Positions 6,138-33,605 of a DNA stretch of 36,454 nucleotides are shown here, in pieces. How positions within the stretch are numbered: position 1 is the first letter of the stretch; every line of letters starts with the position of its first letter. The stretch is from contig CANQYN010000002.1 in the NCBI GenBank assembly GCA_947628105.1, positions 1-36,454 of the forward strand, given 5' to 3'. The notes below the pieces were generated by a model. It was not told the origin of the DNA. It did no database searches and was given only the letters and a program-made list of their open reading frames with translations. Both the position numbers and the translations under genes were made by a program. Origin of the DNA: an uncultured Bacilli bacterium. Its GTDB lineage: Bacteria > Bacillota_I > Bacilli_A > RF39 > UBA660.

Positions 6138-6147
6138 CTTTTCCCTC

Positions 6148-13472: not shown

Positions 13473-13518
13473 AACTTCTACTCCTTTTTGATTTAATTAA
13501 TTTTTTCCAATTATTAAA

Positions 13519-13527
13519 ATTATAACA
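13519..13527 (-). promoter_or_regulatory. Possible internal extended -10 element (TGTTATAAT)
   Basis: It lies in the 80-nt gap between membrane paralog 1 and the oxidoreductase gene. AT-rich DNA produces such matches by chance. Confidence 0.3.
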
Positions 13528-13552
13528 TAATACAAACTTTGGTATAAATAAA

Positions 13553-16635: not shown

Positions 16636-18155
16636 ATTTCATGACCAGCTTTTCTACCTTTTAAAGAAAGAGCATAAATCAATAATGGAACAGCACATAG
16701 TATTTGAGAATAAACAAATCGTATCTCTTCACCTGTTATTAATAACATAATAATTAACGTGTTACTAATAACTAGTATAAATGGTAAATAATATTCTAAT
16801 TGAAATCTTTTCCTATAAATCACTATTACAATAGATAAAACAATAAGAAATAACCCCATTCCCACTCCGAAAAATAAATATTTTAATGGAGACGTAGAAA
16901 TAATATCATAATATCTTTCATAACACCCTCTCGCATGAATTAAAATGAAAGAATGATTTTTTTGTAATTCATCCGATGCAAAATTATCTAAATGATCTTG
17001 AATTTTCCAAATAGGACTTGTCACGTTCATATAAGAACGTATATATTTATCAGGATATTTAATAGCATATTTTATATAAAATTTTATAATTTCTTTAAAA
17101 TTTGTATCCACCCATGTTCCATAAATACCTTTACTGTTTGATTTCAAAAAATTAAAACTCGCTGGGCGATAATATTGTTCCCACTTTTCTTTGGGAGCAA
17201 GCTTGTCCAATAGTTTATGTTCTTCTTTTGTCATTTTAACATTTTGATGATAAATATAGGCGATTTGATTCATCGGAACTCCCATCATTTCTGATTTTCC
17301 TCCATCAGGGGTAATTCCTAATTGACTATAAACGGGTCCATATAATAAAAATCGAAATAAAACAAATAGAATGCCACAAGTCATATAAAATTTACGTTTA
17401 TCTTTATATAAAACAATTAAAGTTAAAAACATCAATACGACACTGAAAAGTCCATTATGACGAAACATCATAATTCCTAAGCTTACTAAAATAAAAATTA
17501 TTTTATGACTTGTTTTTTCTATCCATTTTCCTTTTGTAAAAACAATTTCTATTAAAAATAAAGTTCCTACAAACAATATCCATGAAAATGGGACATCTTT
17601 ATAACAATACATCGACATTTTAATAAAAGTAGGATTTAACATAATTGTCAATAAAGCAAGGATTGTTCCTTTTTTACTCAGAAAATATTTTCTTAAAAAG
17701 ATACAAAAATATAATAAAATACATCCAATAAAAATTAATTGAAAAACAGATAATGATACATAACTGTCATATATCATAGTCGGTAAAGTGACAAAAATTA
17801 AAGTCTCAATGAAAGGATGCCAATTGGTATAAGTTCCACTATGTACTTGACGCAATTGACTTTGGGTATCAGAACTTACAACGGCAGGAAATAAGGCAAG
17901 AAATGCGAAAAGAAAAATTGTTATAATGATACCACCATATAAAATCAATTCCTTTTTTTCATATTTTTCTTTATCTTTTTTCAAAACAAAATTACTGAGA
18001 TTAGGAAATATCGTCTTCAATATCATAAAAGAAATAAAAAATATCATTACCACACTAAACCAAGAGATGCTTTCATTTAGATTCCAACAAATGGAAATAG
18101 AAAAATAAATAGATAATAACATTTCCAAAATAAATAACAAACTATTTTTTTTCAT
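16632..18155 (-). CDS. Polytopic membrane protein, tandem paralog 3 of 3
   Basis: Same motifs as the other two. The start is placed at the ATG at 18155 (MKKNSLLF...), which aligns with the N-termini of the paralogs. The ORF-track extension to 18233 would overlap the 3' end of ugd. Confidence 0.85.
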   Translation of the reverse strand: MKKNSLLFILEMLLSIYFSISICWNLNESISWFSVVMIFFISFMILKTIFPNLSNFVLKKDKEKYEKKELILYGGIIITIFLFAFLALFPAVVSSDTQSQLRQVHSGTYTNWHPFIETLIFVTLPTMIYDSYVSLSVFQLIFIGCILLYFCIFLRKYFLSKKGTILALLTIMLNPTFIKMSMYCYKDVPFSWILFVGTLFLIEIVFTKGKWIEKTSHKIIFILVSLGIMMFRHNGLFSVVLMFLTLIVLYKDKRKFYMTCGILFVLFRFLLYGPVYSQLGITPDGGKSEMMGVPMNQIAYIYHQNVKMTKEEHKLLDKLAPKEKWEQYYRPASFNFLKSNSKGIYGTWVDTNFKEIIKFYIKYAIKYPDKYIRSYMNVTSPIWKIQDHLDNFASDELQKNHSFILIHARGCYERYYDIISTSPLKYLFFGVGMGLFLIVLSIVIVIYRKRFQLEYYLPFILVISNTLIIMLLITGEEIRFVYSQILCAVPLLIYALSLKGRKAGHEI

Positions 18156-18171
18156 CTTTTCACATCCATTC

Positions 18172-19338
18172 TCAATCTCTTGTATAAATATCTCTCGTAT
18201 AAATTTTGGAAATGCTATCGTTAATATTTTCATCTATTCTATTAGCTAAAATAATATCAGATTTTTCTTTAAAATCTTGTAGATCATCTATTACTTTACA
18301 ATTAGCAAATGTCCCTTCTTTTACAATTGGTTCATAGATAATAATATCGATATCTTTTCGTTTCAATAACGCTATAATATCTTGAATAGCGCTGGCTCTA
18401 AAATTATCAGAATTATTTTTCATTGTTAAACGATATATTCCTACTATTTTGGGAGATTTTTTTTCTATCATATCAACAATATGTCTTTTTCGTGTATCAT
18501 TTGATTTTATAATAGCTTCTATAATATTATTCGGGACATCTTTATAATTAGCAAGCAATTGTTTTGTATCCTTAGGTAGGCAATATCCACCATACCCAAA
18601 AGAAGGATTATTATAAAAATCACCAATTCTAGGATCAAGGCATACCCCTTCAATAATATCTTTTGTATTTAGACCTTTCAGTTCCGCGTAAGTATCTAAC
18701 TCATTAAAATAAGATACACGTAATGCTAAATAAGTGTTTGCGAACAATTTAACTGCTTCTGCTTCAGTTGATTCCATTAAAAGAATTGGAATATCTTTTT
18801 TAATAGCTGCTTCTTTTAATAAAGAAGCAAATTTTAAAGCTCTATCACTTTTCTCACCTACGATAATTCGAGATGGATATAAATTATCATATAAAGCTTT
18901 TCCTTCTCTTAAAAATTCTGGTGAAAACATAATATTAGTCATTTGATATTTTTGTTTCATTTGCTTAATAAAACCAACTGGTACTGTCGACTTGACAACG
19001 ATTGTCCCCATAGGATTAATACTTTTTACTTTCATGATAATATCTTCTACACTAGAAGTATCAAAATAATTTAATTCTTCATCATAATTAGTAGGTGTAC
19101 TAATGATAATAAATTCAGCTTTTTCAAATGCTTCTTTAGCATCTAACGTAGCTTTTAAATCAAGCTTTTTTGTTCTGAAATATTCTTCTATTTCCCTATC
19201 TCTTATAGGCGACTTTTTTTGATTTATCATATCTACTTTTTCAGATAATACATCGAAAGCTATTACTGTATTCCTTTGAGCAAGTAAAACAGCAATAGAA
19301 AGTCCTACATATCCTGTTCCTGCAACTGCTATTTTCAT
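18172..19338 (-). CDS. ugd: UDP-glucose 6-dehydrogenase
   Basis: [14 protein letters not shown] Rossmann start, a catalytic-region [10 protein letters not shown] motif and a length of 388 aa. Confidence 0.9.
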
Positions 19339-20276
19339 GACTTTACACCCTTTCTTAATTCATTTCTTTTATTATCTTTTAAATTTCCCCATAATTTTCC
19401 AAGTTCATAATCCCATGCATCTGGAATAAAATTTCCTAATCCACATGCACTAGTAAAAGTTAATTCTCCAAAATAAATTTTCCCTTTAATTGAATATAAA
19501 TCAACCCTTACATGATCAAAATCTTTCGATAAAAGGCGACAAATTTTTTTCATTTCTTCAAACTTATCTGGGCGTTTAATATTTCCCTCATAATTTTCAT
19601 ATTTGCAACGATATCCTTTTTGTAATTTCCAGTTCATATCATAAATGTTTCGTTTATGTTTTTGAAAACGATTAATATCTACCCAACAATAATATGGGTT
19701 TCCATGAAAGCATAAAAATTTATAATCTTTTAAATTATCACCCATATTTTTTTCAATCATAATCTTTGGTTTAATATCTCTATATTGCATTTGATAACCT
19801 GAATTTGCATAAGCAAAATTCCTCTTTAAAAAGAAATTATTATATTTTGTTCTTAATTTTTTAATTGGTAATTTTTTCTTATCATTACAAATGAAAACAC
19901 TTCCACAATCATGATTGCATTTTATAACAAATTTATTGGGCAACTTATCAAAAGGAATATCATCAAAATTATCGTATATACCCAATAAAGGGATTAAATA
20001 TTCCTCCCCTATTTTTTCTTTAATATATTCTCTTACTGCAATTTTATCTGTTGCCATTGTTTTTAATTTCGTATTCCCATAAAGTTTTACCACATTCAAT
20101 TTTTCATTATAAGTTTTTGGATCTTCCCAATTGATAGAACGATGAAATACTTTTATAAACTGACCATTTATTTCTTGCTCGCTTTGAATATAACTTTTAT
20201 GCTTTCTTTTATTTATTTTTATCAAACGATACATATAAATAATTTTATCAGGTAATAATTTTTTTAATAATTTCAT
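19335..20276 (-). CDS. TupA-like ATP-grasp amidoligase family protein
   Basis: [42 protein letters not shown].. fits the ATPgrasp_TupA pattern as I remember it. The ORF track starts at TTG 20285; ATG 20276 is preferred. ATGA overlap with ugd. Confidence 0.75.
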
Positions 20277-20295
20277 TTTTATCAACTCTTTCTAA

Positions 20296-21804
20296 CTATC
20301 GAATAAATCGTCTGATTAAGTTTTTAAAATATTTATTAAATTGGAAAAATAAACTAAACGAAATAATTCCTAGGAAGCATAAATCAACTATTAATTTAAC
20401 GATAAAAGTTTCCCAAGAAATACCAACCAAATGGAAGATGTGAATATTGACATAATTCAATGTGATGATTGCAATCGATATATATAAAATACTTTCACCT
20501 AGATATAGCAATAAATTATTTTTTGATTTTAATACTTCTTTACAAACTAAATGATAATTAAATGGGATTAAAATAAGATAAGTTGCAAGTACGGTTCCTA
20601 ATAAAAGTCCAAATATTCCAAATTTTTGAACAAATAATAAAGACAAAATAATATTTACAATGGCCTGCCACAACGTATAATGTTTACTTTGTTTATATAA
20701 TCCTTTTGCATCCCTAGCAATGTATACAACCGGCATAATACAACGATGAATATATATCAACATCCAAATAATAATACATCCTGCCCCTAAGGTAAATTCT
20801 TCTCCTATCCACAAAGTAATAAAATCATTGATAAACAAATAAAAGATAGGTGCCGAAATAAGAACAAATAAATAGTTTATAGAAATAGTTTCATAAAATA
20901 ACTGAATAGCACTTTTTTCATTTTCGACTATTTTTTTTCCAAAGGTTGCTCGTAGATTATCGACGACTCGATTAATTAAATTAATTGGATAAGTCATGAC
21001 CATATTATAAGCACTATATATTGTAACATTTTTTAGATTACTAAGAATAGATAAAATAATATTATCCGTTGAACTAAATACGACACTGCTAATCTGATGA
21101 ACAATAATATCTTTCGTCATACTAGTCGCCTCATAATTAGGTTTACTATTTTCTATTAAAATTTGCTTACAATTTTTTTCTATTAACATAAGATAAATAT
21201 AGTTGGTCAATAGTATAATAATAATTCCAATAGTCAATGTAATCAATATATCAATTTTAAATATACTGGCCATAATAATTTCGATAATTAAAATAACTAT
21301 ATTGGCAATCCCATCCACTAAATCAACCAAATATTTTTTCTCATATACATATAATAAATTTTTCTTACTTATTAAAAAATAATATGGTAAAATAAAACGA
21401 ATTCCTAACAAAGCTAAAATAAGAGCAATTTGAATATAAGACAATGTTCCTTTATTTACAATAAATGGATAAATAAAAGAAATTAATAACATGACTACTA
21501 ACATTAACATAGCAATTTTTTTCAGTGATGTTACTAATCCTTTATATAAACCATTTACTTTTGTATATTCCTCTTTAGCCATCGGTTTATACATTTTAAA
21601 AAGATAAGCTGCTCCCAGTCCACTTTCTAATAGCACCAAATAATTAAAAATTTGATGAGAGAGTTGTACTACTCCATTTACATCTGTTCCGTAAAATTCA
21701 ATAAACACTTTGGTTCTAATTAAAGTGAATATTCCCTGTAATAGAAACATAACTACACTGATAATAAATGCTTTTATCATCATATTTTTTCTATTCATCT
21801 TCAT
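20296..21804 (-). CDS. wzx: Wzx-type oligosaccharide flippase (MOP superfamily)
   Basis: About 12-14 TM helices over 502 aa. It sits within a Wzy-dependent cluster and overlaps the CapA-like gene by 14 nt. Confidence 0.75.
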   Translation of the reverse strand: MKMNRKNMMIKAFIISVVMFLLQGIFTLIRTKVFIEFYGTDVNGVVQLSHQIFNYLVLLESGLGAAYLFKMYKPMAKEEYTKVNGLYKGLVTSLKKIAMLMLVVMLLISFIYPFIVNKGTLSYIQIALILALLGIRFILPYYFLISKKNLLYVYEKKYLVDLVDGIANIVILIIEIIMASIFKIDILITLTIGIIIILLTNYIYLMLIEKNCKQILIENSKPNYEATSMTKDIIVHQISSVVFSSTDNIILSILSNLKNVTIYSAYNMVMTYPINLINRVVDNLRATFGKKIVENEKSAIQLFYETISINYLFVLISAPIFYLFINDFITLWIGEEFTLGAGCIIIWMLIYIHRCIMPVVYIARDAKGLYKQSKHYTLWQAIVNIILSLLFVQKFGIFGLLLGTVLATYLILIPFNYHLVCKEVLKSKNNLLLYLGESILYISIAIITLNYVNIHIFHLVGISWETFIVKLIVDLCFLGIISFSLFFQFNKYFKNLIRRFIR

Positions 21805-22933
21805 TTTTCATCCCAATTCTATTTTTTAATCCTCGAATAAATAGTTCGTTATGAGCCTCACATTGCAAAAGATTTAAAATTTGAAGATAATCTTGCTCTC
21901 GATAACTGTGATTATAACGTCCTTTTGTGATTTTATTCATCAATCGATAGAAAAATGTTTTGTTTACTGTTCTCTTTAAATAATTATCCAAATTTTTATC
22001 AGCAAACTGATTATAATTATCATTGATAAACTTGCTATCTTTTATCTTCTGGTTACGGAGCATAAATTCATCCATACATTGACAATATTTTTTATCTTTA
22101 GGGGATAACAACCTGATTTTCCCGTTTTGTTTTTCATGAAATAAATAATTGATTTTAATACGTTTATTAATTGTAACTTCTAATATCATTCCCGTATTCC
22201 AGTACTCATCGTCTCCACGATCAAAAATAAAATTACCTTGTCCATATACGATTGTTGAATGATGATATTTCTCTACAGAACCAATAGCATGACTATGTTG
22301 ACATACGACGATATCAGCTCCACTATCTACTAATTTACGACATAATTTTTGTAATCTTGGACTAGGATAACGATAATACTCTTTTCCTCCATGATATAAT
22401 ACTATTAGACGATTACATTGTTTTTTTAATTCTTTTACATCATCAAAAGTGGTAAATTCATCATAATAATTAGCACCATAAGTAGTTCTTGTAGCATTCG
22501 AAAACTCTGTCTCACAACAAGAATAAATTCCTATTTTAAGATTACCATCTTTTAATATAAAATACTTTTTTAACTTTTCTTTATTAGTTCCTACTCCCAC
22601 ATAAGAAATACGATTTTTAGTTAAAATATCTAACGTGTTTTTACATCCTTTTTCTCCATAGTCCATAATATGATTGTTAGCAAGAGAAATTAAACTCGGG
22701 TTTAATGCTTTTATTCCTTTTATAACAATAGGGTTAGTTTGTAAATTAGGCCCTGTTTTTTTGATTGGTTTTAAATTCTTACAAATTGGCGTCTCTAAGT
22801 TAAATAATTTGTATTTTGTTTTATCCCAAATTTGGTATAAATCTTTCCCTAACAATTCTTCTATATGGCCCTGTGCAAATAATTCTTGATTTGATTGGGT
22901 AGGAACCAAATCACCTGCTATTAATAATTTCAT
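21791..22933 (-). CDS. CapA/PgsA-like metallophosphatase-fold protein with no N-terminal membrane anchor
   Basis: MKLLIAGDL.., SLANNHIMDYG, GADIVVCQHSH and GQGNFIFD motifs fit the PGA_cap family. SD is GAGGTGA. Confidence 0.7.
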   Translation of the reverse strand: MKLLIAGDLVPTQSNQELFAQGHIEELLGKDLYQIWDKTKYKLFNLETPICKNLKPIKKTGPNLQTNPIVIKGIKALNPSLISLANNHIMDYGEKGCKNTLDILTKNRISYVGVGTNKEKLKKYFILKDGNLKIGIYSCCETEFSNATRTTYGANYYDEFTTFDDVKELKKQCNRLIVLYHGGKEYYRYPSPRLQKLCRKLVDSGADIVVCQHSHAIGSVEKYHHSTIVYGQGNFIFDRGDDEYWNTGMILEVTINKRIKINYLFHEKQNGKIRLLSPKDKKYCQCMDEFMLRNQKIKDSKFINDNYNQFADKNLDNYLKRTVNKTFFYRLMNKITKGRYNHSYREQDYLQILNLLQCEAHNELFIRGLKNRIGMKNEDE

Positions 22934-22964
22934 ATCATCACCTCAATTTAATTTTTTAATTATA

Positions 22965-24131
22965 CTAAATTTTAGTTTTCTTATTAAACAATTCTGGACT
23001 TCGATAACATAACAACCAAATGAAAAACATCAAAGCTGTCCCAGAATAACTAAATGGTTCTGTCATCCACATTAAAAAATATGTTGCCATAACAGCTAAT
23101 AAAATATTTGTAATTGGTAAATTCGTGCATTTTTTTAATTGCTTTGTAATATCATAAATTATATAAGTAACAACTATCAATAATAAGATACCACCCTCGA
23201 ATAAAAATATTAAAAATTGATTATGAGGACTGGTAGATCCTAAAATAGCAGTCCTTGCCTCTTGGGATAATCTTCCATATCCAAGGAAAGGTCTATCCCC
23301 TATTAAAGAAAGAACTTTTCGCCAAATAACTGTTCTTCCCGTAAAGGTAATATCTCTATGTAAAATTGTCACAATCAAAGGAGCTATTAAATTTTGAATT
23401 TTTACTTTAATAACTAAAAAAGAAGCAACAGCAAAAAAAAGATAAGAATTAAAAGGATAAAACAAATCTCTTTTTTTAGGTAATCGTTTCATTATTATTA
23501 ATAGGATAATAAATAATCCAAATCCTAGTATAGAAGTAACAGGCCAAGTAAGAAGAAGAGTTAAAGCAACAACTCCTACATAACAATAACTTCTTTTATC
23601 CAATTTTTGTTCTTTTAAATAAGAACGTATCATAGTTAAACAACATCCTGGTAACAAATAACGAATGGTAACATTTACGTGATCAAAAAGATAATAATTA
23701 CGAGTATAGTCTAGATGATACAAACCATTTGGAAAAAAGATTGCTAAAATAAAATTGATGTAAGTTAAAATTTCGAGCAATAAAACAATAGTATCGAGAG
23801 AAGAATAAAATTCTTTTTTATCTAAATTGCTCCATATCAATATCATTAAAATAATAGATCCTATTTCAGCAATCAAAGGTTTTAAAGGATAGGGGCTTAA
23901 AAATGTAGAAAGAAATAAAACACCGTAATAAATTAACAAATATCCAAAGAATTTTGTAATTTTCAAATCTTGTTTAAAATAGAAAAAAAGTAAAAATGTA
24001 ATACCACTTAAAACACAACATATAAAATTAATATGTGAAATGAAATAATCAATAATAGGAATTCTAATAGCACAAAGAAAATTAATAATAATTAATATTT
24101 TTAATCCCTTCCCTAATATTTTGTTATCCAT
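22965..24131 (-). CDS. wzy: Wzy-type polysaccharide polymerase / O-antigen-ligase-like membrane protein
   Basis: About 10 TM helices with a late periplasmic-type loop, and SPHNQFLIFLFEGGILLL resembling the Wzy_C motif. Confidence 0.7.
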   Translation of the reverse strand: MDNKILGKGLKILIIINFLCAIRIPIIDYFISHINFICCVLSGITFLLFFYFKQDLKITKFFGYLLIYYGVLFLSTFLSPYPLKPLIAEIGSIILMILIWSNLDKKEFYSSLDTIVLLLEILTYINFILAIFFPNGLYHLDYTRNYYLFDHVNVTIRYLLPGCCLTMIRSYLKEQKLDKRSYCYVGVVALTLLLTWPVTSILGFGLFIILLIIMKRLPKKRDLFYPFNSYLFFAVASFLVIKVKIQNLIAPLIVTILHRDITFTGRTVIWRKVLSLIGDRPFLGYGRLSQEARTAILGSTSPHNQFLIFLFEGGILLLIVVTYIIYDITKQLKKCTNLPITNILLAVMATYFLMWMTEPFSYSGTALMFFIWLLCYRSPELFNKKTKI

Positions 24132-25308
24132 TTTTTATCACCTCAATAACAAGATTTAAATATCTTTGAGACATGTCTTCTTCATTATAATAATTTCCTG
24201 TTTTGATTGCTTCTTGAATAATATGATTTCGCTCTTCTGTTTTCATATCTATAATCTTTGTTATTACTTCTGTTAGCTCTTTTTCATTGGGATGAATCAA
24301 AAAACCATTTTTATTATTTTTGATGATTCCATCAATTCCCTCATTTTGAATTCCAATCGTAATACATCCATGAGACATCGCTTCTAAATAAACAAGTCCT
24401 AATGTTTCTCTTACACTTGGCATACAAAATATATCCGCCTTGCTCATAAATTCAAAAACTTTACTTTTGGGTAAATTTCCTAAAAATTTAACCATTTTAG
24501 CTAAATTTAATTCGTTTACCAAATTTTGATATTTTTCTAACATGGGCCCCGATCCAATTACAATTAATTCCCAATTTTTATTCTTTACTAGTTTTAATGC
24601 TCGAATTAAAATATCTAAATTTTTTCTTTTTATCAACTTTCCAACATATAAGATTTGAATTTTAGATTTCTTAAATTTATTATTGCATATATCTTTTGTT
24701 ATATCTACTTTTGGAACTCCAGATAAAATTAATTCTTTTTGTAAATTAGGTAAATGATATTTTTTAAATATATCATAAATTGCTTTGCTTCGACAAAATA
24801 TATATTGGTAAGTTTCTTTCAAATGTTGAATATATTTATCTCCTTTTTTATTTAAAAACAAAACATCAGAATAATGCAAAATAGCAACTTTATTACATTT
24901 ATAATTTAATTTATTTATAAAAAATGAAGAAATACAAGGTAAATGCACTAAAATAACATTTGGAATAAAATGTTCTTTTTTCAACTCCTGTTCAATCATA
25001 TGATTAAATCTTTTCCTTGCTAAATAATGTCCTTGCTTTTGTTTTGGAAAAAAATTTTGCCGCTCTATTAAAAAGACAGGAATATCTCCACAATGATAAT
25101 GATATCCATTTTCATAATATATTCTATTTTCTTTTTTTAAAAAACGGGTTATTTTCCTAATCCCCATTGGAAAATTATTAATTACTAAAAGATTATTAGA
25201 AGAGGTCCAATACTTTGTTAAATCATAAATACATATAGAATCTCTTTCTAATTCTTCTCTACCTATGATTTGATACATCGGTGTAATTAATAATATATTA
25301 TGTTTCAT
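24124..25308 (-). CDS. Glycosyltransferase, GT4 (GT-B fold)
   Basis: The C-terminal E..G.VYLEAMSHGCITIG....GIDGIIKNNKNGFL is an EX7E-type motif. The start is probably ATG 25308 (AAGGTGA SD); the ORF track starts at GTG 25314. Confidence 0.85.
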   Translation of the reverse strand: MKHNILLITPMYQIIGREELERDSICIYDLTKYWTSSNNLLVINNFPMGIRKITRFLKKENRIYYENGYHYHCGDIPVFLIERQNFFPKQKQGHYLARKRFNHMIEQELKKEHFIPNVILVHLPCISSFFINKLNYKCNKVAILHYSDVLFLNKKGDKYIQHLKETYQYIFCRSKAIYDIFKKYHLPNLQKELILSGVPKVDITKDICNNKFKKSKIQILYVGKLIKRKNLDILIRALKLVKNKNWELIVIGSGPMLEKYQNLVNELNLAKMVKFLGNLPKSKVFEFMSKADIFCMPSVRETLGLVYLEAMSHGCITIGIQNEGIDGIIKNNKNGFLIHPNEKELTEVITKIIDMKTEERNHIIQEAIKTGNYYNEEDMSQRYLNLVIEVIKNG

Positions 25309-25310
25309 TG

Positions 25311-26465
25311 TCACATCACCTTTTTATATAATTTTATAATTTCTTCCGCATTTTTTTCCACAGAAAATACTTTTGCTCTCTCATAACCATTTTGAATAAT
25401 TTCTTTTCTTTTCTTAGTATCCATATAAAAAATTTTTTCGATAACATTTGCCAACTCTTGATTATTATTATATTTATATAAAAATCCTGTATCTTTTTGA
25501 ATAATTTCTAAATTTGCCCCCGTATTTGACGCTATTGTTAATAATTTATTTGACATATATTCAACTGTTACTCTACCAAAAGCTTCCGCTTTTGAACACA
25601 TAATTCCAATGTCATATTTAGAAATAATATTTTCAATATTTTTATTATATCCTTTAAAGTTAAAATTTTTTATTATATTATACTTCTTTATCTTTTTTTC
25701 TAAATAATGAATATAAGCATCTGAGCCGTTTCCATAAAAATCAACTACAATTTGTTTTTGAATCATATCTGGCAATAGATGAATAGCTTCAATTAATTGA
25801 TATTGCCCTTTACTTTCTTGAATTCCCCCCATAAAAAGAATTTTTAATTTATCTTGCGAAAAATCTTTTTCAAAATCTTCTTTGATTTTTATTCCATTGT
25901 AAATTCGTTTTATTTTCTTTTTATCAATTCCTTTTTTAATAAAATTTTCTTTGATTATATCTGAAATGGCAATAAAATAATCTGTATATTGATTTAAAAA
26001 TTGAATATGATTTTTAATCAAATAAATTCCTTTATAATCTTGATCTTGAAATTCTCGTATATGTTGAATATGTGGTTTATGATATTTTTGACTTAATAAT
26101 ATTCCAAAATCATCTCGATTTACATTAGTATGAATAATATCTATTTTAGACATATCAAGTAGAGTATCTATTTTTTTTAAAGCTACTTTATTACAAAAAT
26201 AATGTTGCCATTTATAAAACGGATATAACGTTCTTTTTATAACTTTTTTAATAGTAGTACTTGCATCTGGGACAAAAAATGGCTTATAGTTTAATATTCT
26301 ATATGTAATGTTATGCTTTTCGCATAATTCGGTTAACAATCCTTTTCTAGACATTATTATAAATGGCTCAACATCATATTTTTGTCTTAAATAGTCAGCC
26401 AAATAAATTAATGATTTCGTAGCCCCTCCAATTTGAGCTTCATTGGCAACAAATAAAACTTTCAT
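25311..26465 (-). CDS. Glycosyltransferase, GT4 (GT-B fold)
   Basis: MKVLFV..GGA start, and C-terminal SKAEAFGRVTVEYMSNKLLTIASNTGAN.EII. SD is GGAGAGG. Confidence 0.85.
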   Translation of the reverse strand: MKVLFVANEAQIGGATKSLIYLADYLRQKYDVEPFIIMSRKGLLTELCEKHNITYRILNYKPFFVPDASTTIKKVIKRTLYPFYKWQHYFCNKVALKKIDTLLDMSKIDIIHTNVNRDDFGILLSQKYHKPHIQHIREFQDQDYKGIYLIKNHIQFLNQYTDYFIAISDIIKENFIKKGIDKKKIKRIYNGIKIKEDFEKDFSQDKLKILFMGGIQESKGQYQLIEAIHLLPDMIQKQIVVDFYGNGSDAYIHYLEKKIKKYNIIKNFNFKGYNKNIENIISKYDIGIMCSKAEAFGRVTVEYMSNKLLTIASNTGANLEIIQKDTGFLYKYNNNQELANVIEKIFYMDTKKRKEIIQNGYERAKVFSVEKNAEEIIKLYKKVM

Positions 26466-26468
26466 TTT

Positions 26469-28397
26469 TTACCTCTCCTCTACTTTATTATGATGCATAA
26501 ATAATCGACGTAATATAGAATATGGCACATTGAATTTAAATACCTGTTTTAAAAACATTGCTTTACAACTAGAATTACGAAAGTCAAGATAAAAATTTTT
26601 TAAATGAAACAAGTAATACATCAGTGAGTGAGCTGATACCAATTTAGTAGCATTGACATCTTCAAATTCAATATTTTTAAATAGCTTTATATTAGAAAAA
26701 GTGGGATGTAAAGAAAGATTTTTATAATTTTCAAAAAATGCTTCTTTTTTGATATTGCTAAATAAATCTTTTATATGACTTTGTTCGACATCTTGGACAA
26801 ATTGCTTTGCTTTATCTTGCATTTGTTTTACTATTTCTTTATTAGAAATAGACTGATTACCATAAATAGGTTCAATCACTTCTCCTTTTTCTTGATAACC
26901 TATGGTAGTTTTTTCAGTTGATAAAAACATGGTTTCAAACAATCCTAAACTTAATCGAATTATAATTTGAAAATCCAAATTGTTTTTGTCATCATATAAA
27001 AAACCAAACCGATTTAAAGATTGATATTCAGAATATTTTTTTTCTTGGTCTATTCCATAATAATACCCATATAAATTTACATCATTGCTAGTATATTTAT
27101 CTAAATAATACTGTATTGTTCCATTCCAACCAATATCGACAAGAGCAATATTTCCTGTAAAATTATTTTGACTTAAATATCGAGTAAAATATTCTTTTTG
27201 AATTTTACTTGATAATTCTGCCGGTCTACGTATTACTTTAAAAATTTCTTCCTTCTCTTGAATGGTTAACTCATTCAGTATTTTATTTTGATAAGGAACT
27301 TTCAAATTATCTAATTGCATAACATGTAAAACATCACTTACTTTAGAAAAATCCCGAATAATAGATTTTATCTTATAGATCATATCATCAAAATCTTTTA
27401 ATTTTTCTAAATTAGCTAAAACAACCGATTTGCGAGATATTTTTATATAATAAATAGGAAGTTTTTCATTAAACCTTTTTTCATATACCTCTTTTATAAT
27501 TTTCGCATCTCTTGCTAGAAAATAAATCTTGTCAATTTTATCCTCCTTTATTTTTTGATGGATCCATGTAGTAAAGCTATATAAAATAGGACCTAATACT
27601 TCATATCCAAAAGCTTCATAATCGGATAAATTACCAATCCGATTATTAATAAATGTCGATAAAATATTATAATCTAAAGAATTATTTTTGCTTTCAAAAG
27701 ATGAATATTTTCCATTTTGAGAAATTAAAATAGATTTTATTCCATATTTTTTAGTCCTTATAAAATCTGCTTTAGGATGATCACCAATATGTACTATTCT
27801 TTTTTTTGATATATGATTTTCTTCTAAAAAACATTTAAATAAATTCCCACTTGCTTTCGATAATTTTTTATCAGAAGATACATATAACTTTTCATATTCA
27901 GTATATCCATTACTTTCTAATATTTCCTTTATTAATTCTATTGGTAAATAGATATCAGAAATAAAAAAAATCATTTTCTTTTGTTCTACACATTTTTGAT
28001 AAATAGAATACATTGGTAAATTTTTAGTACAAATTTTCTTTTCTATTTCTAATTCTAATTTCAACAATTCTTTTTTTTCTTCTTTCGAATACTTTCCTAT
28101 ATAATCATAAATTTCTGATAATGTTACTTCTTCCTCTTTGGTATTTTCTCTTGCTTTTTTTTCAGCAATAATTCTCTCTTCTTGAAATCCTGCTATTTTA
28201 TCTTTTCTTATTTCATTAAATTTTTCCTCTACCAATAAAAATACATCTTTTGGTTTTTGTACATCTCTTTTTATTACCGTATCAAAAATATCGAAAGATA
28301 CGACATCAGCATCTTTTATTTTATTTTCTATTTGGTGATAATTGGTATCAAAAACAACATGAAAAAAATTTTTTAAAATTTTTTTTAATTGTTTCAT
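26469..28397 (-). CDS. HAD-superfamily hydrolase domain (N-terminal ~230 aa) fused to a ~400-aa uncharacterised domain
   Basis: HAD motif I is VVSFDIFDTVIKRD and the late motif is HIGDHPKADF. The C-terminal two-thirds has no motif I can name. Confidence 0.7.
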   Translation of the reverse strand: MKQLKKILKNFFHVVFDTNYHQIENKIKDADVVSFDIFDTVIKRDVQKPKDVFLLVEEKFNEIRKDKIAGFQEERIIAEKKARENTKEEEVTLSEIYDYIGKYSKEEKKELLKLELEIEKKICTKNLPMYSIYQKCVEQKKMIFFISDIYLPIELIKEILESNGYTEYEKLYVSSDKKLSKASGNLFKCFLEENHISKKRIVHIGDHPKADFIRTKKYGIKSILISQNGKYSSFESKNNSLDYNILSTFINNRIGNLSDYEAFGYEVLGPILYSFTTWIHQKIKEDKIDKIYFLARDAKIIKEVYEKRFNEKLPIYYIKISRKSVVLANLEKLKDFDDMIYKIKSIIRDFSKVSDVLHVMQLDNLKVPYQNKILNELTIQEKEEIFKVIRRPAELSSKIQKEYFTRYLSQNNFTGNIALVDIGWNGTIQYYLDKYTSNDVNLYGYYYGIDQEKKYSEYQSLNRFGFLYDDKNNLDFQIIIRLSLGLFETMFLSTEKTTIGYQEKGEVIEPIYGNQSISNKEIVKQMQDKAKQFVQDVEQSHIKDLFSNIKKEAFFENYKNLSLHPTFSNIKLFKNIEFEDVNATKLVSAHSLMYYLFHLKNFYLDFRNSSCKAMFLKQVFKFNVPYSILRRLFMHHNKVEER

Positions 28398-28413
28398 ATA
28401 ACATCACCACCTT

Positions 28414-29187
28414 TTAAAAACTTTTTTCATATTTTTTTCCTAAAAACTTTGCTTTTAAAAATCCGGTTCCCTTTTTAAACCAGTCAATTTTTTCCATATA
28501 CATAAATGGTACTTCTTTATAAGAATATCCTTTATAATCTAGCCAAATATCTAATAAGCGTTCACTTATTCTTCCATAAAATCTAGCATGAAAAGCATCA
28601 TATTTTTGATGTTTCATTTTCTTTTCTAGTTCAAATAAAATATCAAATAACCATGTACAATATTCATCTAAATATTCTTTTTTCATAATAAACATATTAA
28701 ATGCATGCATATGTGTTCTTTTCATCACTTTTTGCAAACTATCCATATATTCTGGATATTTTTTATTGATAATTTTAATTGTCTCATCTAAAGGTTCTTC
28801 ATGCATAGTGTGTCTATAATGATTTTCAATAGTTTCAATATAATATTTTCTTTTAGAAGGAACAATAATATTATATTGATCTAGATATTTTTCTAATTCA
28901 TCTCTTTTTAAAATGGAAGAAAATTTATCTTTGCCGTATTTCCCTTTAAAGTATCTTCTATAATGAACAAGTCCTACATAATCTGCCTCTAAATTTTTCC
29001 ACGCCCAATATAGTCCAGTTAATTCACAAAAATATGGATTTTTCTCTGATATATTTTTTCCATCATCATCTCTTTGATATCCCAAACTATCCTTATCCTT
29101 AGCTCCTACATGGAGAGGAAGATACATATTATCTTTAGGCATTTCATATTTTTTGTGAGTCGCAACAACGATTTTAATATCTTTCAA
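28414..29187 (-). CDS. DUF4422-family putative glycosyltransferase
   Basis: IKIVVATHKKYEMP..YLPLHVGA..DDDGKNISEKNPYFCELTGLYWAWKN matches the DUF4422 signature as I remember it. Confidence 0.7.
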   Translation of the reverse strand: MKDIKIVVATHKKYEMPKDNMYLPLHVGAKDKDSLGYQRDDDGKNISEKNPYFCELTGLYWAWKNLEADYVGLVHYRRYFKGKYGKDKFSSILKRDELEKYLDQYNIIVPSKRKYYIETIENHYRHTMHEEPLDETIKIINKKYPEYMDSLQKVMKRTHMHAFNMFIMKKEYLDEYCTWLFDILFELEKKMKHQKYDAFHARFYGRISERLLDIWLDYKGYSYKEVPFMYMEKIDWFKKGTGFLKAKFLGKKYEKSF

Positions 29188-29195
29188 TTTATCAC

Positions 29196-29873
29196 CTACT
29201 TTGCTCCATGACCTCTTAAAACTGCAATCACTGTTTTGAAAATAATTTTAATATCCAACCATATACTCATATGATCAACATAATATAATTCTAAAGCTAT
29301 TCTATCTTCATAGTTCCTACAGCTTCTTCCATTACAAGCCCACCATCCAGTTAAACCCGGTAATATACTTAATAATTTTTTCTGGTTTTTACCATATTTT
29401 TTTAATTCTTCTTTTACGATAGGTCTAGGTCCTACTAAAGACATATCTCCTTTTAAAACATTGATTAATTGTGGTAATTCATCCAAAGAACAAATTCGTA
29501 AAATTTTTCCAACTTTCGTAATTCTCGGATCATTATCTAATTTAAAATTAGCTTTCCACTCTTTTCTTCTTTTCGGATTTTTTAATAATTTTTTTAATTC
29601 TTTATCGGCACCATCATACATGCTTCTAAATTTATATAACCATATCGTTTTCCCATCTTTTCCAATACGCTTATGTTTATAAAATACTGGTCCTTTTGAA
29701 TTCAGTTTTATCATTAAAGCAATCAATAAAAAAATCGGTGACAAAATTATTAAAGCCGCTAACGAAAAAAATGCATCAAAAAAACGTTTAACGAATAAAT
29801 AATTTTTATTTGTTTCGCTAAAGTTTTGCTTTTTTAATACTTTATCCTTCAATGCTTTTCTTTGATTGCCCAC
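29196..29873 (-). CDS. Initiating undecaprenyl-phosphate sugar-phosphate transferase (small monotopic phosphoglycosyl transferase)
   Basis: KRFFD..SL..LIILSPIFLLIAL..GPVFYKHKRIG and DELPQLINVLKGDMSLVGPRP motifs. GTG start at 29873 preceded by GGAGGG with a 6-nt spacer. Confidence 0.9.
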   Translation of the reverse strand: MGNQRKALKDKVLKKQNFSETNKNYLFVKRFFDAFFSLAALIILSPIFLLIALMIKLNSKGPVFYKHKRIGKDGKTIWLYKFRSMYDGADKELKKLLKNPKRRKEWKANFKLDNDPRITKVGKILRICSLDELPQLINVLKGDMSLVGPRPIVKEELKKYGKNQKKLLSILPGLTGWWACNGRSCRNYEDRIALELYYVDHMSIWLDIKIIFKTVIAVLRGHGAK

Positions 29874-29917
29874 AACATACCCTCCATACTACTATATTAG
29901 TCTTTTAAAAATATCAT

Positions 29918-29932
29918 AGAACAACTAGTTCT
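29918..29932. repeat. Left recombination core site AGAAC-AACTA-GTTCT
   Basis: Perfect 5-bp inverted arms flank an asymmetric 5-nt spacer. It is the exact reverse complement of the site at 31130-31144. It lies 44 nt upstream of the operon's GTG start. Confidence 0.7.
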
Positions 29933-29954
29933 CGGATAGCTGTAATACATACAA

Positions 29955-29985
29955 ATTATATCATAAAATCATCTTTTTTTAACAA
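29955..29985 (-). promoter_or_regulatory. Outward-facing extended -10 promoter candidate reading into the polysaccharide operon
   Basis: The minus strand carries TGATATAAT (29963-29955). The best -35, TTGTTA (29985-29980), sits at a 19-nt spacing. The element lies inside the cassette and reads across the left core site. Confidence 0.45.
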
Positions 29986-30072
29986 TTATTACATAAAAAT
30001 AAGCTAATTTTTATTTTTTTATTTAATAAAAGTAAAGAAATAATTAAAATAACAGTTTGGAGGTGACAAAAA

Positions 30073-31008
30073 ATGTTAATATTTAAGAAAAAATATCTTT
30101 TTTTCGATTTGATTAATTTATGGCTAGATACGAAAAAAAACATTAAAATTCAATCGTATCAAAAGTATGAAAATTTAGCCAATTTATTTATTAAAAATAG
30201 TATAGGTAATATTGATATTAATTTACTAACAAAAGAAGATATCCTCTGTTTTTTTAAAAATCTACAAGATAAAAAAGTATCTATATCAACTCAGAAAATA
30301 TTACTTTATATTATAAAAGCTACTCTACAAATGGCATATCAAAAGAAAAAATGCAATTATATTGATCTAAGCGATATTAAAATTAAATCACCAGTCAGAA
30401 ATACATATATTTTATCAAAAGAAGACCAATTGAAGCTAGAACATGTTTTAAAAGAAGATATTAACATTCGAAAAACATGCTTGTTACTTTGTTTATATAC
30501 TGGTCTTCGTATTGGTGAAGTATGTGGTTTAAAATGGGAGGATATTAATTTCAATACAAAATCACTAGAAGTAAAAAGAACGATTGAGAGAATAAAAAAT
30601 AATGAAAAAAATTCTCATTTAAAAACTATTTTAATTGAAAGTACACCTAAAAGTGATACATCTAATCGTATTATTCCTATTCCTAATTTTTTAATTCAAA
30701 TGTTACAAAAATTAAAAACAGAGGATAAATATTTTTTATTATCCAATAAAGAAACATTATATGATCCAAGACTTTTTAATTATTTTTATAAAAATATTTT
30801 AAAAAAATCTAATATTACCTATACTAATTTTCATACTTTACGCCATACTTTTGCAACTCGTTCAATCGAATCAAAAATGGATATAAAAACGTTAAGTGAA
30901 ATTTTAGGACATTCTAATGTCGATATAACGTTGCGTTTATATGTACATCCTTCGTATGAATTAAAGAAAAAATCGATTGAAAATTTAGTAAACTTTATGA
31001 CTAATTAG
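30073..31008 (+). CDS. Tyrosine site-specific recombinase (phage-integrase / Xer-like family)
   Basis: The catalytic signature is present: TGLRIGEV (Arg I), HTLRHTFAT (His-x-x-Arg), LGHSNV and RLYVH (Tyr). SD is GGAGGTGA. Confidence 0.9.
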   Translation: MLIFKKKYLFFDLINLWLDTKKNIKIQSYQKYENLANLFIKNSIGNIDINLLTKEDILCFFKNLQDKKVSISTQKILLYIIKATLQMAYQKKKCNYIDLSDIKIKSPVRNTYILSKEDQLKLEHVLKEDINIRKTCLLLCLYTGLRIGEVCGLKWEDINFNTKSLEVKRTIERIKNNEKNSHLKTILIESTPKSDTSNRIIPIPNFLIQMLQKLKTEDKYFLLSNKETLYDPRLFNYFYKNILKKSNITYTNFHTLRHTFATRSIESKMDIKTLSEILGHSNVDITLRLYVHPSYELKKKSIENLVNFMTN

Positions 31009-31073
31009 CAAAAAAAGAAAAATTGTTATATATGTTTTACATAAATGATATAGCTTTTAACTAATAATATCAT

Positions 31074-31088
31074 AAAACTAGTTGTTCT
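31074..31088. repeat. Inner right core site AAAAC-TAGTT-GTTCT (one arm mismatch)
   Basis: A direct repeat of the outer right site, 56 nt upstream of it. It overlaps the -35 of the right-hand promoter and is preceded by ATATCATA, as the left site is. Confidence 0.55.
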
Positions 31089-31110
31089 AAGAATGTTTTC
31101 ATGATATAAT
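31082..31110 (+). promoter_or_regulatory. Outward-facing extended -10 promoter candidate at the right end of the cassette
   Basis: TTGTTC (31082-31087), a 17-nt spacer including TG, then TATAAT (31105-31110). In the present orientation it reads into the mraY terminator. Confidence 0.5.
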
Positions 31111-31129
31111 TTATATACAAAATTACTGA

Positions 31130-31144
31130 AGAACTAGTTGTTCT
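31130..31144. repeat. Outer right recombination core site AGAAC-TAGTT-GTTCT
   Basis: Exact inverted copy of 29918-29932. Confidence 0.7.
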
Positions 31145-31189
31145 AAGATAACATTCTTATTATGGAGTAAAACAATATTATTATTCCAC

Positions 31190-31226
31190 TAAAAAATCAC
31201 TAGATAAATGTCTAGTGATTTTTTTT
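31190..31226. terminator. Bidirectional rho-independent terminator downstream of mraY
   Basis: aaaaaATCACTAGA-taaatg-TCTAGTGATttttttt. The 9-bp stem has an A-run on one side and a T-run on the other. Confidence 0.8.
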
Positions 31227-32214
31227 AAATCCATACTGCAAATAAAACACCTGCCATAGAAAGAATTATTCCAACAACCCAAAACATTTTTACAATATCT
31301 CTTTCTTTCCATCCTAATTTTTCAAAATGATGATGGAGTGGTGCCATTAAAAATACTCTTCTTCCCGTTATCATTAAAGATAATCTTTGAATAATAACAG
31401 ATAATGTTTCAATAATAAATACTCCGGCAATAATAATAAAAGTAATTTCATGATTCGTAAGAATAGCAATCGTTGCCATGGTACCTCCTAAACATAAAGA
31501 GCCAGAATCTCCCATCATAATTTTAGCTGGATAGGTATTATAAAATAAATATCCTAATAAAGCACCCACTAAAATGAAGCAGAAAACAGCAATCTCAGTA
31601 TAACCTACTACCCAGGTAGAATTCCATGCAATTAATCCAAGGGCTAAAAAAGCGATAAGAGAAAGACCTCCTGCTAAACCATCTAATCCATCTGTTAGAT
31701 TTACAGCATTACTACTTGCCACTAAAATAAATAGTAAAAATACTCCATAGAACCAATACATTTCTAAACGAAAATTAAGTGTATGAATATAAAGCTCTGT
31801 TTGATGTCCACTTTTTAAAAAGATATAGAAAAATCCTAATGCAATTAATAACTGTCCAACTAGCTTTTTCATTTCACTTAACCCATTATTATTATGTCTT
31901 TTTATAATTAAAAAATCATCAATAAATCCTAATATAGCATATCCAATAAAGACAAATAAAATAGTAAGCAAGTTATTAGACCATTCTAATCGATTCATAA
32001 GAAGTAAGATTAAAATAGTCAGAACAGTAGGAATAATAAAGATAAAACTTCCCATCGTTGGTGTTCCTTCTTTTTTCTTATGTTGTAGTAAAGACCAACT
32101 TAACACTTGTTTTGCTCCTACTTTTTTCATCAAAGGAATAATTATTAAACCACATAAGATGGCGAGAATAAACCCGATCATCATGGCCAACATTGCTTTT
32201 GCTAGAACTAACAC
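31225..32214 (-). CDS. mraY: Phospho-N-acetylmuramoyl-pentapeptide transferase
   Basis: Ten-TM profile with GFIDDFLIIK, NAVNLTDGLDGLA, MGDSGSL and APLHHHFE motifs. GTG start with an AGGAG SD. Confidence 0.92.
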   Translation of the reverse strand: MLVLAKAMLAMMIGFILAILCGLIIIPLMKKVGAKQVLSWSLLQHKKKEGTPTMGSFIFIIPTVLTILILLLMNRLEWSNNLLTILFVFIGYAILGFIDDFLIIKRHNNNGLSEMKKLVGQLLIALGFFYIFLKSGHQTELYIHTLNFRLEMYWFYGVFLLFILVASSNAVNLTDGLDGLAGGLSLIAFLALGLIAWNSTWVVGYTEIAVFCFILVGALLGYLFYNTYPAKIMMGDSGSLCLGGTMATIAILTNHEITFIIIAGVFIIETLSVIIQRLSLMITGRRVFLMAPLHHHFEKLGWKERDIVKMFWVVGIILSMAGVLFAVWI

Positions 32215-32228: not shown

Positions 32229-33605
32229 CTATCTTCTTCTGCGTACTTTTTCTAAATATTCTAATACGGCATTTTTATCATTAAATGGAATTTCTTGTTC
32301 TCTTATTTTCATATATTGTTCATACCCTTTTCCTAAAATAACTAGAGCATCATTTCCTCTTAAATAAGAAATTCCTTTATTAATTGCTTCTTTTCGATCT
32401 AAAATCACTTCATAATTAGTAAAATCTTTTTTTGATAAAATATCGTTTACAATTTGATTTTCATCCTCATATCCAGGATCATCATTCGTAATAATAAATT
32501 GTTTAGATAGTTTACTTGCTACATAAGCCATCATTGGTCTTTTATTACGATCTTTTCCTCCTGCACAACCAAATATAACATAAATATCGCCTGTTGTAAA
32601 TTCTTTTATAGACATTAATACTTTCTCCATTGCATCTGGAGTATGAGCATAATCGATAATAATTAGACTACTATTATATTTTATCATATCCATGTATCCA
32701 CTAGGTGCTTTTAACGCATAAATCGTTTTTAATAGTGGAACTGGTTTTACTCCAAGAGCTAATAAATAAACAATGACAGCCATCAAATTATAAATATTAT
32801 ATTTCCCAATCAACGAAGTATTTACTTGATAAGTATCTCCTTTATAAGAAAACTTAAATATCATTCCATTAGGATTTAATTCATATTCTCCTATTTTAAA
32901 ATGAACTCCTTCTTTCGTACCATAAACTAAATTATAATTATTAGCTAATATAAAATTAGAAGCATAATTATCATCACCATTAATGATGGCAATTCCTCCA
33001 CTTTTTAAATGGCGAAACAATTGTTGCTTTACTTCAGCATATTTTTCCATCGTTACAAAAGCATCTAAATGCGATTCTGATAAATTTGTAAAAATAGCAT
33101 CATCAAAAGGAATCGTTTTTACTTTTTCTTGTTCTAAATCATGACAGCTTACTTCTAATATAAAGTACTTAAAACCCTTATCATATGCTTGAATCATATA
33201 ATCATAAATATCACAAATATTAAGTTCTTTCATTCCATCTTCTTTTTGATTTTCTAAAAAATATCCCATAGTTCCTAGAAAAGCTACTTTATATCCTAAA
33301 CGTGTCATAGCATCATAAAGCAAATAAGAAACGCTACTTTTCCCATTTGTTCCAGTAACTCCAATAATATTCATTTCATGTAAAAATTCATTGTAATTTT
33401 TTCTTAAATATTTTGCTAAATAATCATATGTATTATCTACTAATTCTGTTGTAATACTATAATTTCCCGTTTCGGCAATAATTTTTCTTGCCCCTTTTTG
33501 AATTGCTTGATTAATATAATCATGGCCATCCGTATTTACTCCACGTAAAGCAACATAAATATCTCCTGGTTTTATTTTTTGGTAGTCTGTTTTTATATTT
33601 ATCAT
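32229..33605 (-). CDS. murE: MurE paralog 2, a UDP-MurNAc-L-Ala-D-Glu:amino-acid ligase with a non-DNPR motif (DDPG)
   Basis: GVTGTNGKSS P-loop, DYAHTPDA and GGKDRNKRP motifs. It has TNDDPGYEDE in place of DNPR and GKGYEQY in place of GKGHE.Y. SD is AAGGTGA. Confidence 0.85.
   Translation of the reverse strand: MINIKTDYQKIKPGDIYVALRGVNTDGHDYINQAIQKGARKIIAETGNYSITTELVDNTYDYLAKYLRKNYNEFLHEMNIIGVTGTNGKSSVSYLLYDAMTRLGYKVAFLGTMGYFLENQKEDGMKELNICDIYDYMIQAYDKGFKYFILEVSCHDLEQEKVKTIPFDDAIFTNLSESHLDAFVTMEKYAEVKQQLFRHLKSGGIAIINGDDNYASNFILANNYNLVYGTKEGVHFKIGEYELNPNGMIFKFSYKGDTYQVNTSLIGKYNIYNLMAVIVYLLALGVKPVPLLKTIYALKAPSGYMDMIKYNSSLIIIDYAHTPDAMEKVLMSIKEFTTGDIYVIFGCAGGKDRNKRPMMAYVASKLSKQFIITNDDPGYEDENQIVNDILSKKDFTNYEVILDRKEAINKGISYLRGNDALVILGKGYEQYMKIREQEIPFNDKNAVLEYLEKVRRRR

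Follow-up and report, generated by a model that had tools for sequence, protein, structure and literature searches.

A probable promoter cassette encoding its own tyrosine recombinase ahead of a polysaccharide operon of an uncultured Bacilli bacterium, and its relatives in gut bacteria

Background

In fimS of E. coli, which is inverted by FimB/FimE, and in the RecV switches of Clostridioides difficile (cwpV, flgB, cmrRST) a tyrosine recombinase inverts a promoter segment between short inverted repeats, and phase-variable surface structures are controlled in this way (PMC5903667). Here we analyzed a segment of roughly 1.2 kb, in the following called the cassette, which probably works in a similar manner and is located at the head of a polysaccharide operon of an uncultured Bacilli bacterium (lineage RF39, UBA660; assembly GCA_947628105.1, contig CANQYN010000002.1, positions 1 to 36,454). 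This whole stretch of 36,454 nucleotides is referred to as the window. The segments of fimS and of the RecV switches are about 150-320 bp in size with the recombinase gene outside, in the case of RecV elsewhere in the genome, whereas in the window the recombinase gene forms the body of the segment. Furthermore, the window recombinase did not reach the cut-offs of the FimB/FimE-type NCBIfam models NF007370 and NF007371 (24.6 and 30.4 bits compared to 221 and 222), and its likeness to RecV is based on description.

Hin of Salmonella, which depends on Fis and an enhancer, belongs to the serine invertases. The H segment resembles the window in that the recombinase lies inside the invertible segment together with an outward promoter for the adjacent operon (PMC5903667). 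In contrast, the window enzyme is a tyrosine recombinase without a Resolvase domain and in its sites an asymmetric spacer is enclosed by palindromic arms. For a promoter switch enclosing its own recombinase the only tyrosine-type precedent that we found, with partial coverage of the literature, is a putative one of Providencia stuartii, a single predicted fimbrial switch segment of 844 bp (Sekulovic et al. 2018, PMC5903667). This gammaproteobacterial case was compared by its description, which omits family relationship, promoter anatomy and terminator insulation (PMC5903667).

Promoter inversion ahead of polysaccharide or surface operons of gut bacteria is also known from the capsule invertons of Bacteroides (Mpi; Tsr-type) and from Clostridia inverton group 139 with invertase group 35, genes of tyrosine recombinases being enriched in the vicinity; a survey of gut invertons linked Clostridia invertons of roughly 250 bp to tyrosine recombinases close by (PMC11892184). 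The Bacteroides and Clostridia invertons are about 200-300 bp long and use an invertase encoded outside or a master invertase acting in trans, whereas each member of the window family has a private recombinase and a private spacer. Segments that contain a recombinase gene were not described by the gut inverton survey (PMC11892184). In the hsdS shufflons of Type I restriction-modification systems (pneumococcal ivr/SpnIII, S. suis SsuCC20p) a tyrosine recombinase is located within the inverting locus as in the window (PMC7672463, PMC10790761, PMC11868660). However, the shufflons recombine coding sequence for target-recognition domains, their repeats lie inside genes and no promoter is inverted. 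In the literature searched, coverage of which was partial, a description of a family of recombinase-containing cassettes was not found. The inverton as such is a known kind of element; new are the self-contained architecture, the wide distribution and the three-site, two-promoter layout of the window copy.

Results and discussion

Recombinase and recombination sites of the cassette

Based on our analysis the cassette is likely to be an autonomous invertible promoter cassette with a tyrosine recombinase of its own. An initial annotation of the window had proposed a self-encoded inversion switch with an outward promoter. This proposal is strengthened by the same architecture in 52 of 80 homologous loci, by an outward -10 element that is specific for one cassette end and by a family member with 62% identity that was found precisely inverted.

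The recombinase open reading frame (ORF) matched Phage_integrase (PF00589) with 93 bits (cut-off 27.1) and its N-terminus matched a SAM-like domain (Phage_int_SAM_3); no other domains were matched, and a Resolvase domain as in serine invertases was not found in this search. The catalytic signature described previously is intact: R146, H254, R257, H280 and Y290 belong to the residues that are invariant across 25 homologues, and the catalytic residues align with the motifs GLR, HxLRH and LGH..Y of XerA/XerC-like structures. With PF00589 and the catalytic R/HxxR/H/Y residues the protein carries the features that define the tyrosine recombinase superfamily. It is full length compared to homologues at 60-68% identity. 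None of the cut-offs of named NCBIfam families was reached, among them those for XerA (82 bits compared to 220), XerC (71 compared to 335), XerD (62 compared to 330), XerS (46 compared to 267) and the integron integrase IntI (56 compared to 265). Phage and plasmid collections contained only distant integrases with at most 37% identity. The gene had been called the only one on the plus strand of the window; it is the only credible one, and a second plus-strand ORF (11651-12019) exists which overlaps minus-strand genes. A candidate promoter and a ribosome-binding site (RBS) located at 30023-30066 may serve the recombinase gene (Table 1).

The window has a G+C content of 27%. The core of the left site is AGAACAACTAGTTCT (29918-29932) and its inverted copy AGAACTAGTTGTTCT is found at the right end (31130-31144). 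Both cores extend to an inverted repeat of 21 nt (29912-29932 and 31130-31150) in which 20 of 21 positions match. The best ungapped inverted repeat of the recombinase flanks scored 18, while dinucleotide shuffles scored 11.1 +/- 1.2 with a maximum of 15 (0/500 reached 18). The arms of the sites are palindromic around an asymmetric 5-nt spacer, AACTA/TAGTT, which has the opposite orientation at the two ends, and therefore inversion and not excision is predicted. These results are in agreement with the initial annotation in terms of site coordinates, inverted arms and opposite asymmetric spacers, and the longer imperfect arms reported there could be aligned across about 100 columns. Target-site duplications were not found in the window sequence at the cassette ends (29911/31151).

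The layout with two sites given by the initial annotation is incomplete. The 13-mer AACTAGTTGTTCT occurs exactly three times within the 36 kb, each time at a cassette end. The overlooked third copy is located at 31074-31089 (exact AACTAGTTGTTCT at 31076-31088) in the same orientation as the outer right site and lies within a 56-nt tandem duplication (31045-31092 and 31101-31148). In the alignment of the two arms this inner right site forms a 12-nt insertion in the right arm. The idea that the inner copy is merely the -35 element of the right promoter was rejected, since 17 consecutive bases including the spacer are identical to the outer right site. The arm consensus of the whole family, with which the left site was compared, is TATCrTAGAAy with locus-specific spacers. 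By manual count the arm consensus TATCATAGAAC was matched at 20 of 22 positions by the left, 18 of 22 by the inner right and 17 of 22 by the outer right site, the inner arm of the latter matching at 7 of 11.

Outside the outer right site (31151-31190) the window contains TTATTATGGAG, which is not followed by a start codon. It resembles the TGATATAAT unit plus the TATGGAGGG ribosome-binding region outside the left site. This stretch may have remained from a second target gene, or from a duplication in which the outside flank was copied as well.

The cassette family in related genomes

At least 120 full-length homologues of the recombinase with 52-68% identity were found, none of them closer among the matches listed. 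A profile scan with one genome per species yielded 80 homologous loci. The nearest ones belong to metagenome-assembled genomes (MAGs) of uncultured Bacilli and 'Tenericutes' from rabbit, human and mouse gut, the more distant ones to Lachnospiraceae, Oscillospiraceae and Ruminococcus. The inverted repeats that enclose the recombinase gene in the 52 loci mentioned above are 16-34 nt in length and lie 1.07-1.5 kb apart; the same enclosing repeats were present in the metagenomic loci L001 and L011. A same-strand control gave 8-14 in nearly all loci, with 19-23 reached in L033, L063 and L074. Family sites have the form TTCGTAGAAy-N5-7-rTTCTACGAA, that is two arms and a short asymmetric centre. The centre varies between loci and is identical at both ends of each locus, and such a co-variation is what would be predicted for functional recombination sites.

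Outward -10 elements (TGnTAnnnT with at least 5/6 of TATAAT, within 90 nt of a site) were recorded for 55 cassettes. At the end next to the recombinase 5' end they were present in 27 of these, and the other three combinations of end and strand gave 2, 2 and 1. The left site and the recombinase start are 110-140 nt apart in the family, and this stretch carries the outward extended -10 (TGnTATAAT-like), which is placed 13-24 nt before the site in Bacilli-type cassettes. At the opposite end the recombinase stop codon is 0-12 nt away from the right site in most Bacilli-type members. RBS and start of the target gene are located 15-55 nt outside one site with the gene pointing away from the cassette, so that there is no room for an external promoter. 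Outside the other site a hairpin-plus-T-run terminator is usually present. One promoter plus an insulating terminator appears, from these motifs, to be the family norm. The targets are diverse and often surface-related, including Big_2/Listeria-Bacteroides-repeat proteins, secreted proteins, GT2, DUF3137-LemA and priming transferases. In L024, L017 and L016 homologous cassettes precede homologous loci led by a Bac_transf gene.

Some members show a deviating arrangement. L016 (640-2591), a relative with 63% identity, carries its left site in two tandem copies 30 nt apart (708-723 and 738-753) and a right site about 560 nt past the recombinase stop. Priming-transferase genes point away from this cassette on both sides; the left flank shares 74% DNA identity with the Bac_transf gene of the window, and the N-terminus of the right gene shows 50% identity over 28 aa (E = 9e-7). 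With its one outward promoter this cassette would toggle between two polysaccharide operons. In the Clostridia-type locus L053 (5046-6290) the gene directly outside the right site is TnpB/Cas12f-like with a Cas12f1-like TNB domain (E = 3e-9), and the gene at the same position of the Clostridia-type locus L090 (approximately 5053-6390) is similar to it by eye. L021 has a further site-like copy with 2 mismatches in 16, 1.5 kb left of the cassette and inverted compared to the left site. This copy sits in a stretch of 48 nt (2324-2371) with 81% identity to the left end of the L028 cassette.

Inversion in relatives

Direct evidence for inversion was obtained for the cassette of recombinase P0024, the family member with 62% identity to the window recombinase. 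In L128, L129 and L133 the 3' end of P0024 lies against a 144-aa gene, and in L132, which is from another assembly, the cassette of 1.1 kb has the opposite orientation. Positions 1-713 of L132 are the reverse complement of L128 3662-2950 (100% identity), 690-1793 correspond to L128 1870-2973 (99.8%) and 1770-2256 are the reverse complement of L128 1893-1407 (100%). It is the 24-nt site in which these parts overlap, and a single-nucleotide polymorphism of the outer arm stays with the flank; therefore the exchange took place inside the site. A comparable situation was found between related species. The right flank of L032 and the reverse-complemented left flank of L033 share 82% identity, the cassettes are 71% identical in opposite orientation, and in both loci the start of the same 192-aa gene lies 22-23 nt beyond the site. 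Both natural orientations that characterize an inverton were observed for this family member with 62% identity as well as between related species. In addition, the orientation in L037 and L051 is opposite to that in L044, which comes from an isolate genome. The three shortest homologue-bearing contigs (1071, 1083 and 1091 nt) have both ends at or within sites; an assembly graph breaks in this way if a sample contains both types of junction. That cassettes of this family really invert is supported by these data, with direct inversion evidence in a relative.

As a further sign of inversion, one MAG (CANQON01) contains two paralogous units of cassette and target start in opposite orientation states (L019 3857-4977 and L028 3832-4931). 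The cassettes are 77% identical, and junction and gene start are 95% identical over 56 nt. Their spacers, TCATA and TCATT, are one base apart, a difference that would keep the two switches from cross-recombining.

Contigs of P0115, P0072 and P0024 from many assemblies (L101-L107, L110-L117, L130-L137) have the same start base at or just inside the left site. The right junctions of these contigs are continuous through the right site into the target gene, and for this reason the common start was not counted as evidence for inversion. Candidate explanations for such a one-sided break are strain-variable left flanks or hairpin terminators next to the site.

Putative promoters, terminator and proposed mode of switching

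The extended -10 element TGATATAAT is present near both ends of the window cassette (Table 1). The putative promoter P_L is directed leftward across the left site into the operon and the putative promoter P_R rightward across the outer right site into the terminator. The positions of both elements and their spacing of 19 nt to TTGTTA and of 17 nt to TTGTTC are as reported by the initial annotation. It had also rated the spacing of the right promoter as optimal. The right promoter itself is not optimal, since its TTGTTC agrees with TTGACA in no more than 3 of 6 positions, and P_R was therefore skipped by the consensus scan. The same scan detected P_L as a minus-strand promoter at 29982-29955 (10/12 with TG). 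The bidirectional terminator of mraY, into which P_R was said to read, was confirmed by folding. The stretch of 91 nt at 31150-31240, which comprises the terminator and a second small hairpin, folds with -22.2 kcal/mol (z = -6.45; 0/200 shuffles fold as well). A consensus terminator scan missed the mraY hairpin that folding shows clearly, and an Rfam search of the window gave no matches. Between the left site and the RBS of the priming transferase there are only 26 nt (44 nt to the GTG, as described before), and therefore the operon promoter has to lie within the cassette or to overlap the site.

According to the proposed mechanism the recombinase would bind sites of roughly 27 bp with 11-bp arms around AACTA/TAGTT, and owing to the opposite spacer orientation the roughly 1.2 kb in between would be inverted. 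In the sequenced state P_L, beside the recombinase 5' end, points into the RBS and GTG of the priming transferase, which would switch the 19.5-kb operon ON, and the far side of the cassette would be insulated by the mraY terminator. By analogy with L132, L033 and L001 this state with P_L facing the operon is probably ON. In most family members the flipped cassette would have the recombinase 3' end against the target and its promoter directed into the terminator, resulting in OFF or in low read-through expression.

The window copy deviates from this scheme. Its recombinase stop codon is 121 nt away from the outer right site, and this stretch carries the second outward TGATATAAT, that of P_R. 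The left site could pair with either of the two right sites; all have identical spacers. If the outer right site is used, P_R would take the place of P_L at the operon, a state that we call ON-prime. The initial annotation had predicted such an exchange of promoter variants, which is only one outcome out of two. If the inner right site is used instead, P_R would stay where it is and fire into the terminator, and the operon would face only a degenerate -10, TGATATAGC / TATCAT with a 4-of-6 -35, so that expression would be low or OFF. Flipping of the window copy may consequently result in ON-prime or in low expression and not in a clean OFF. That a promoter at both ends is an exception had been overlooked by the initial annotation: an outward extended -10 at the recombinase 3' end was found only in the window and in L017 among 55 cassettes. 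L017 is flanked by outward genes on either side, of which one is a Bac_transf gene. The window device may be a two-level switch, a three-level switch or an evolutionary intermediate. Flipping is supported at the family level, and from there we infer it for the window locus; the promoter activity and expression level ascribed to each of its states are predictions from sequence.

Alternative explanations

Several points weigh against an operating switch at this locus. The ON/OFF logic of the family fails here because a consensus extended -10 is present at both ends, and flipping of the window copy may be phenotypically mild. Taken as a whole, this AT-rich region shows no enrichment of promoter-like hexamer pairs, with 11 found and 13.5 expected. 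Exact-sequence look-ups of the window recombinase, the priming transferase and MraY detected no other contig. The abundant relative P0009, for which a metagenome scan gave 3 loci, has one orientation in all 10 places among the matches listed, P0091 likewise in ten contigs, and a flipped allele was found only with P0024 among the contigs of these three. Finally, the closest relative with the same context, L024, is 72% identical to the window from the DUF4422 gene through the recombinase (3821-6040) and has kept the conserved TGATATAAT of P_L and a left site with a 7-nt centre, and no inverted right site was detected within the remaining 1.1 kb of its contig. L024 may be a locked-ON descendant or have its partner site beyond the contig end, and since no right site was detectable some copies may be locked. 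The window copy itself could then be a locked or decaying switch, a descendant of the family that no longer flips, with the duplications at the right end as scars and an effectively constitutive operon. The poor inner arm of the outer right site would fit such a decay, as would promoters at both ends that make the orientation nearly irrelevant. Yet none of the invariant residues is missing from the intact recombinase ORF, 13 identical bases including the spacer have been kept in three site copies, and the left site is close to the family consensus, which makes a locked switch improbable. Even less probable is a cassette that flips ahead of an operon with a fixed promoter, where inversion would alter the expression of the recombinase only. 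Such a promoter could be read-through from the co-directional genes murF-mraY or a hybrid TTGTTC-19-TAATAT, which is composed of invariant site bases and the outside flank: TAATAT (29892-29897 region) lies 19 nt downstream of the invariant TTGTTC, between site and RBS, and the hybrid could drive the operon in either orientation. However, a 19-nt spacer without a TG motif makes a weak promoter and read-through would have to pass the strong bidirectional terminator between mraY and the cassette. Moreover, in relatives there are 15-25 nt between the site and the target start, so that an external promoter is excluded, and the outward -10 has been conserved with a constant spacing to the site.

A small mobile element, either an insertion sequence-like unit with terminal inverted repeats and a tyrosine transposase or a remnant integrase of a phage or of an integrative and conjugative element with fortuitous repeats, is the explanation to which we give the least credit and is very unlikely. 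Homologous cassettes do adjoin many unrelated genes, some short contigs have the length of the cassette as would also result from a multi-copy element, and distant homologues are phage or plasmid integrases. The best match in phages and plasmids is nevertheless only the distant one given above, and near-identical cassettes at different flanks were not found, different loci sharing at most 78% nucleotide identity. The pairs above this value, L023/L097 (99%) and L021/L095 (92%), are most simply one locus sampled twice, and the two 77% identical cassettes of one MAG (L019/L028) were duplicated together with the target gene start. The inverted asymmetric spacers lead to inversion and not to excision, and the flipped P0024 allele retains both flanks. 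The initial annotation had named the same cassette at many unrelated loci with target-site duplications as the sign of a transposable element; this was looked for and not observed. With at most 78% identity between loci, no target-site duplication and an inversion polymorphism with both flanks retained, the transposon was rejected in favour of an invertible promoter cassette.

Polysaccharide operon and neighbouring genes

The first target gene encodes a priming transferase of the Bac_transf family that is WbaP/EPS_sugtrans-like. From its GTG the operon spans to about 10405, roughly 19.5 kb instead of the approximately 18 kb given initially. To the right of the cassette the 3' end of mraY is closed by the strong bidirectional hairpin terminator, and the genes upstream of the cassette (murF-mraY) are orientated in the same direction as the operon.

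Table 1. Positions of cassette, promoter and operon features within the window
Feature	Position	Strand	Description
Outward promoter P_L (predicted)	29955-29985	-	TGATATAAT 29955-29963, TTGTTA 29980-29985, 19-nt spacer
Outward promoter P_R (predicted)	31082-31110	+	TTGTTC, 17-nt spacer, TGATATAAT 31102-31110
Bidirectional intrinsic terminator	31191-31228		A-run, 15-bp stem, T-run; ends mraY, predicted to insulate the far side of the cassette
Tyrosine recombinase gene	30073-31008	+	311 aa, catalytic residues intact
Candidate recombinase promoter	30023-30050	+	TTAATA-16-TAAAAT; consensus scan 9/12, weak match
Recombinase RBS	30060-30066	+	GGAGGTG
Left site	29912-29938		TATCATAGAAC-AACTA-GTTCTCGGATA; outer arm 29912-29922, spacer 29923-29927, inner arm 29928-29938
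Inner right site	31068-31094		ATCATAAAAC-TAGTT-GTTCTAAGAAT; inverted compared to left site, same spacer, overlaps TTGTTC 31082-31087
Outer right site	31124-31150		TACTGAAGAAC-TAGTT-GTTCTAAGATA; core 31130-31144
First target gene, priming polyprenyl glycosylphosphotransferase	29196-29885	-	GTG start 29873, RBS GGAGGG 29880-29885
Rest of polysaccharide operon	10405-29195	-	From domain searches: DUF4422, unassigned 642-aa protein, GT1 (two), Wzy_C, PGA_cap, unassigned 502-aa protein; TupA-like ATP-grasp, UDP-glucose dehydrogenase, DUF6020 (three), flavin amine-oxidase-like protein, LytR-CpsA-Psr

The three DUF6020 genes of the operon are consecutive paralogues encoding membrane proteins of 512-533 aa (13553-18233), a family without a function assigned in Pfam. 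Two tandem asparagine-synthase paralogues of 609 and 616 aa are located at 1202-4898. Furthermore, the 36 kb contain three genes of the Mur-ligase family (7332-10300; 32229-33605), two of them MurF-like with 453 and 458 aa, which adjoin an alanine racemase and an ATP-grasp gene. The asparagine-synthase and Mur-ligase sets suggest an unusual pathway for the peptidoglycan stem peptide or cross-bridge. In the ORF at 13-1116 a prepilin-type methylation motif (N_methyl) at the N-terminus occurs together with a phage tail collar domain and, at the C-terminus, a Gp10-like domain.

Significance

Phase-variable capsules shape immune evasion, phage resistance and colonisation. To our knowledge, nothing is known about phase-variable capsule regulation in the uncultured low-GC Bacilli of animal and human guts. 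A more far-reaching proposal, which we regard as tentative and rather doubtful in its entirety, is that the cassettes form a very large family of autonomous invertons in gut Bacilli and Clostridia with orthogonal recombinase/site pairs and that the window copy is a three-site, two-promoter, three-level capsule device. Each family module of 1.1-1.5 kb would then consist of a private tyrosine invertase with an equally private spacer, together with an outward promoter and a terminator for insulation. Such pairs of one recombinase and one spacer per cassette would therefore provide ready-made orthogonal invertases for genetic memory circuits, and if this joint proposal is true the family would be a natural library of mutually orthogonal recombinase/site pairs. 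Since usually reported invertons are about 200-300 bp in size (PMC11892184), recombinase-bodied segments of 1.1-1.5 kb may have escaped standard inverton surveys. Should the family have the size that the lists of homologues suggest, a substantial share of the phase variation in gut Firmicutes would have been missed.

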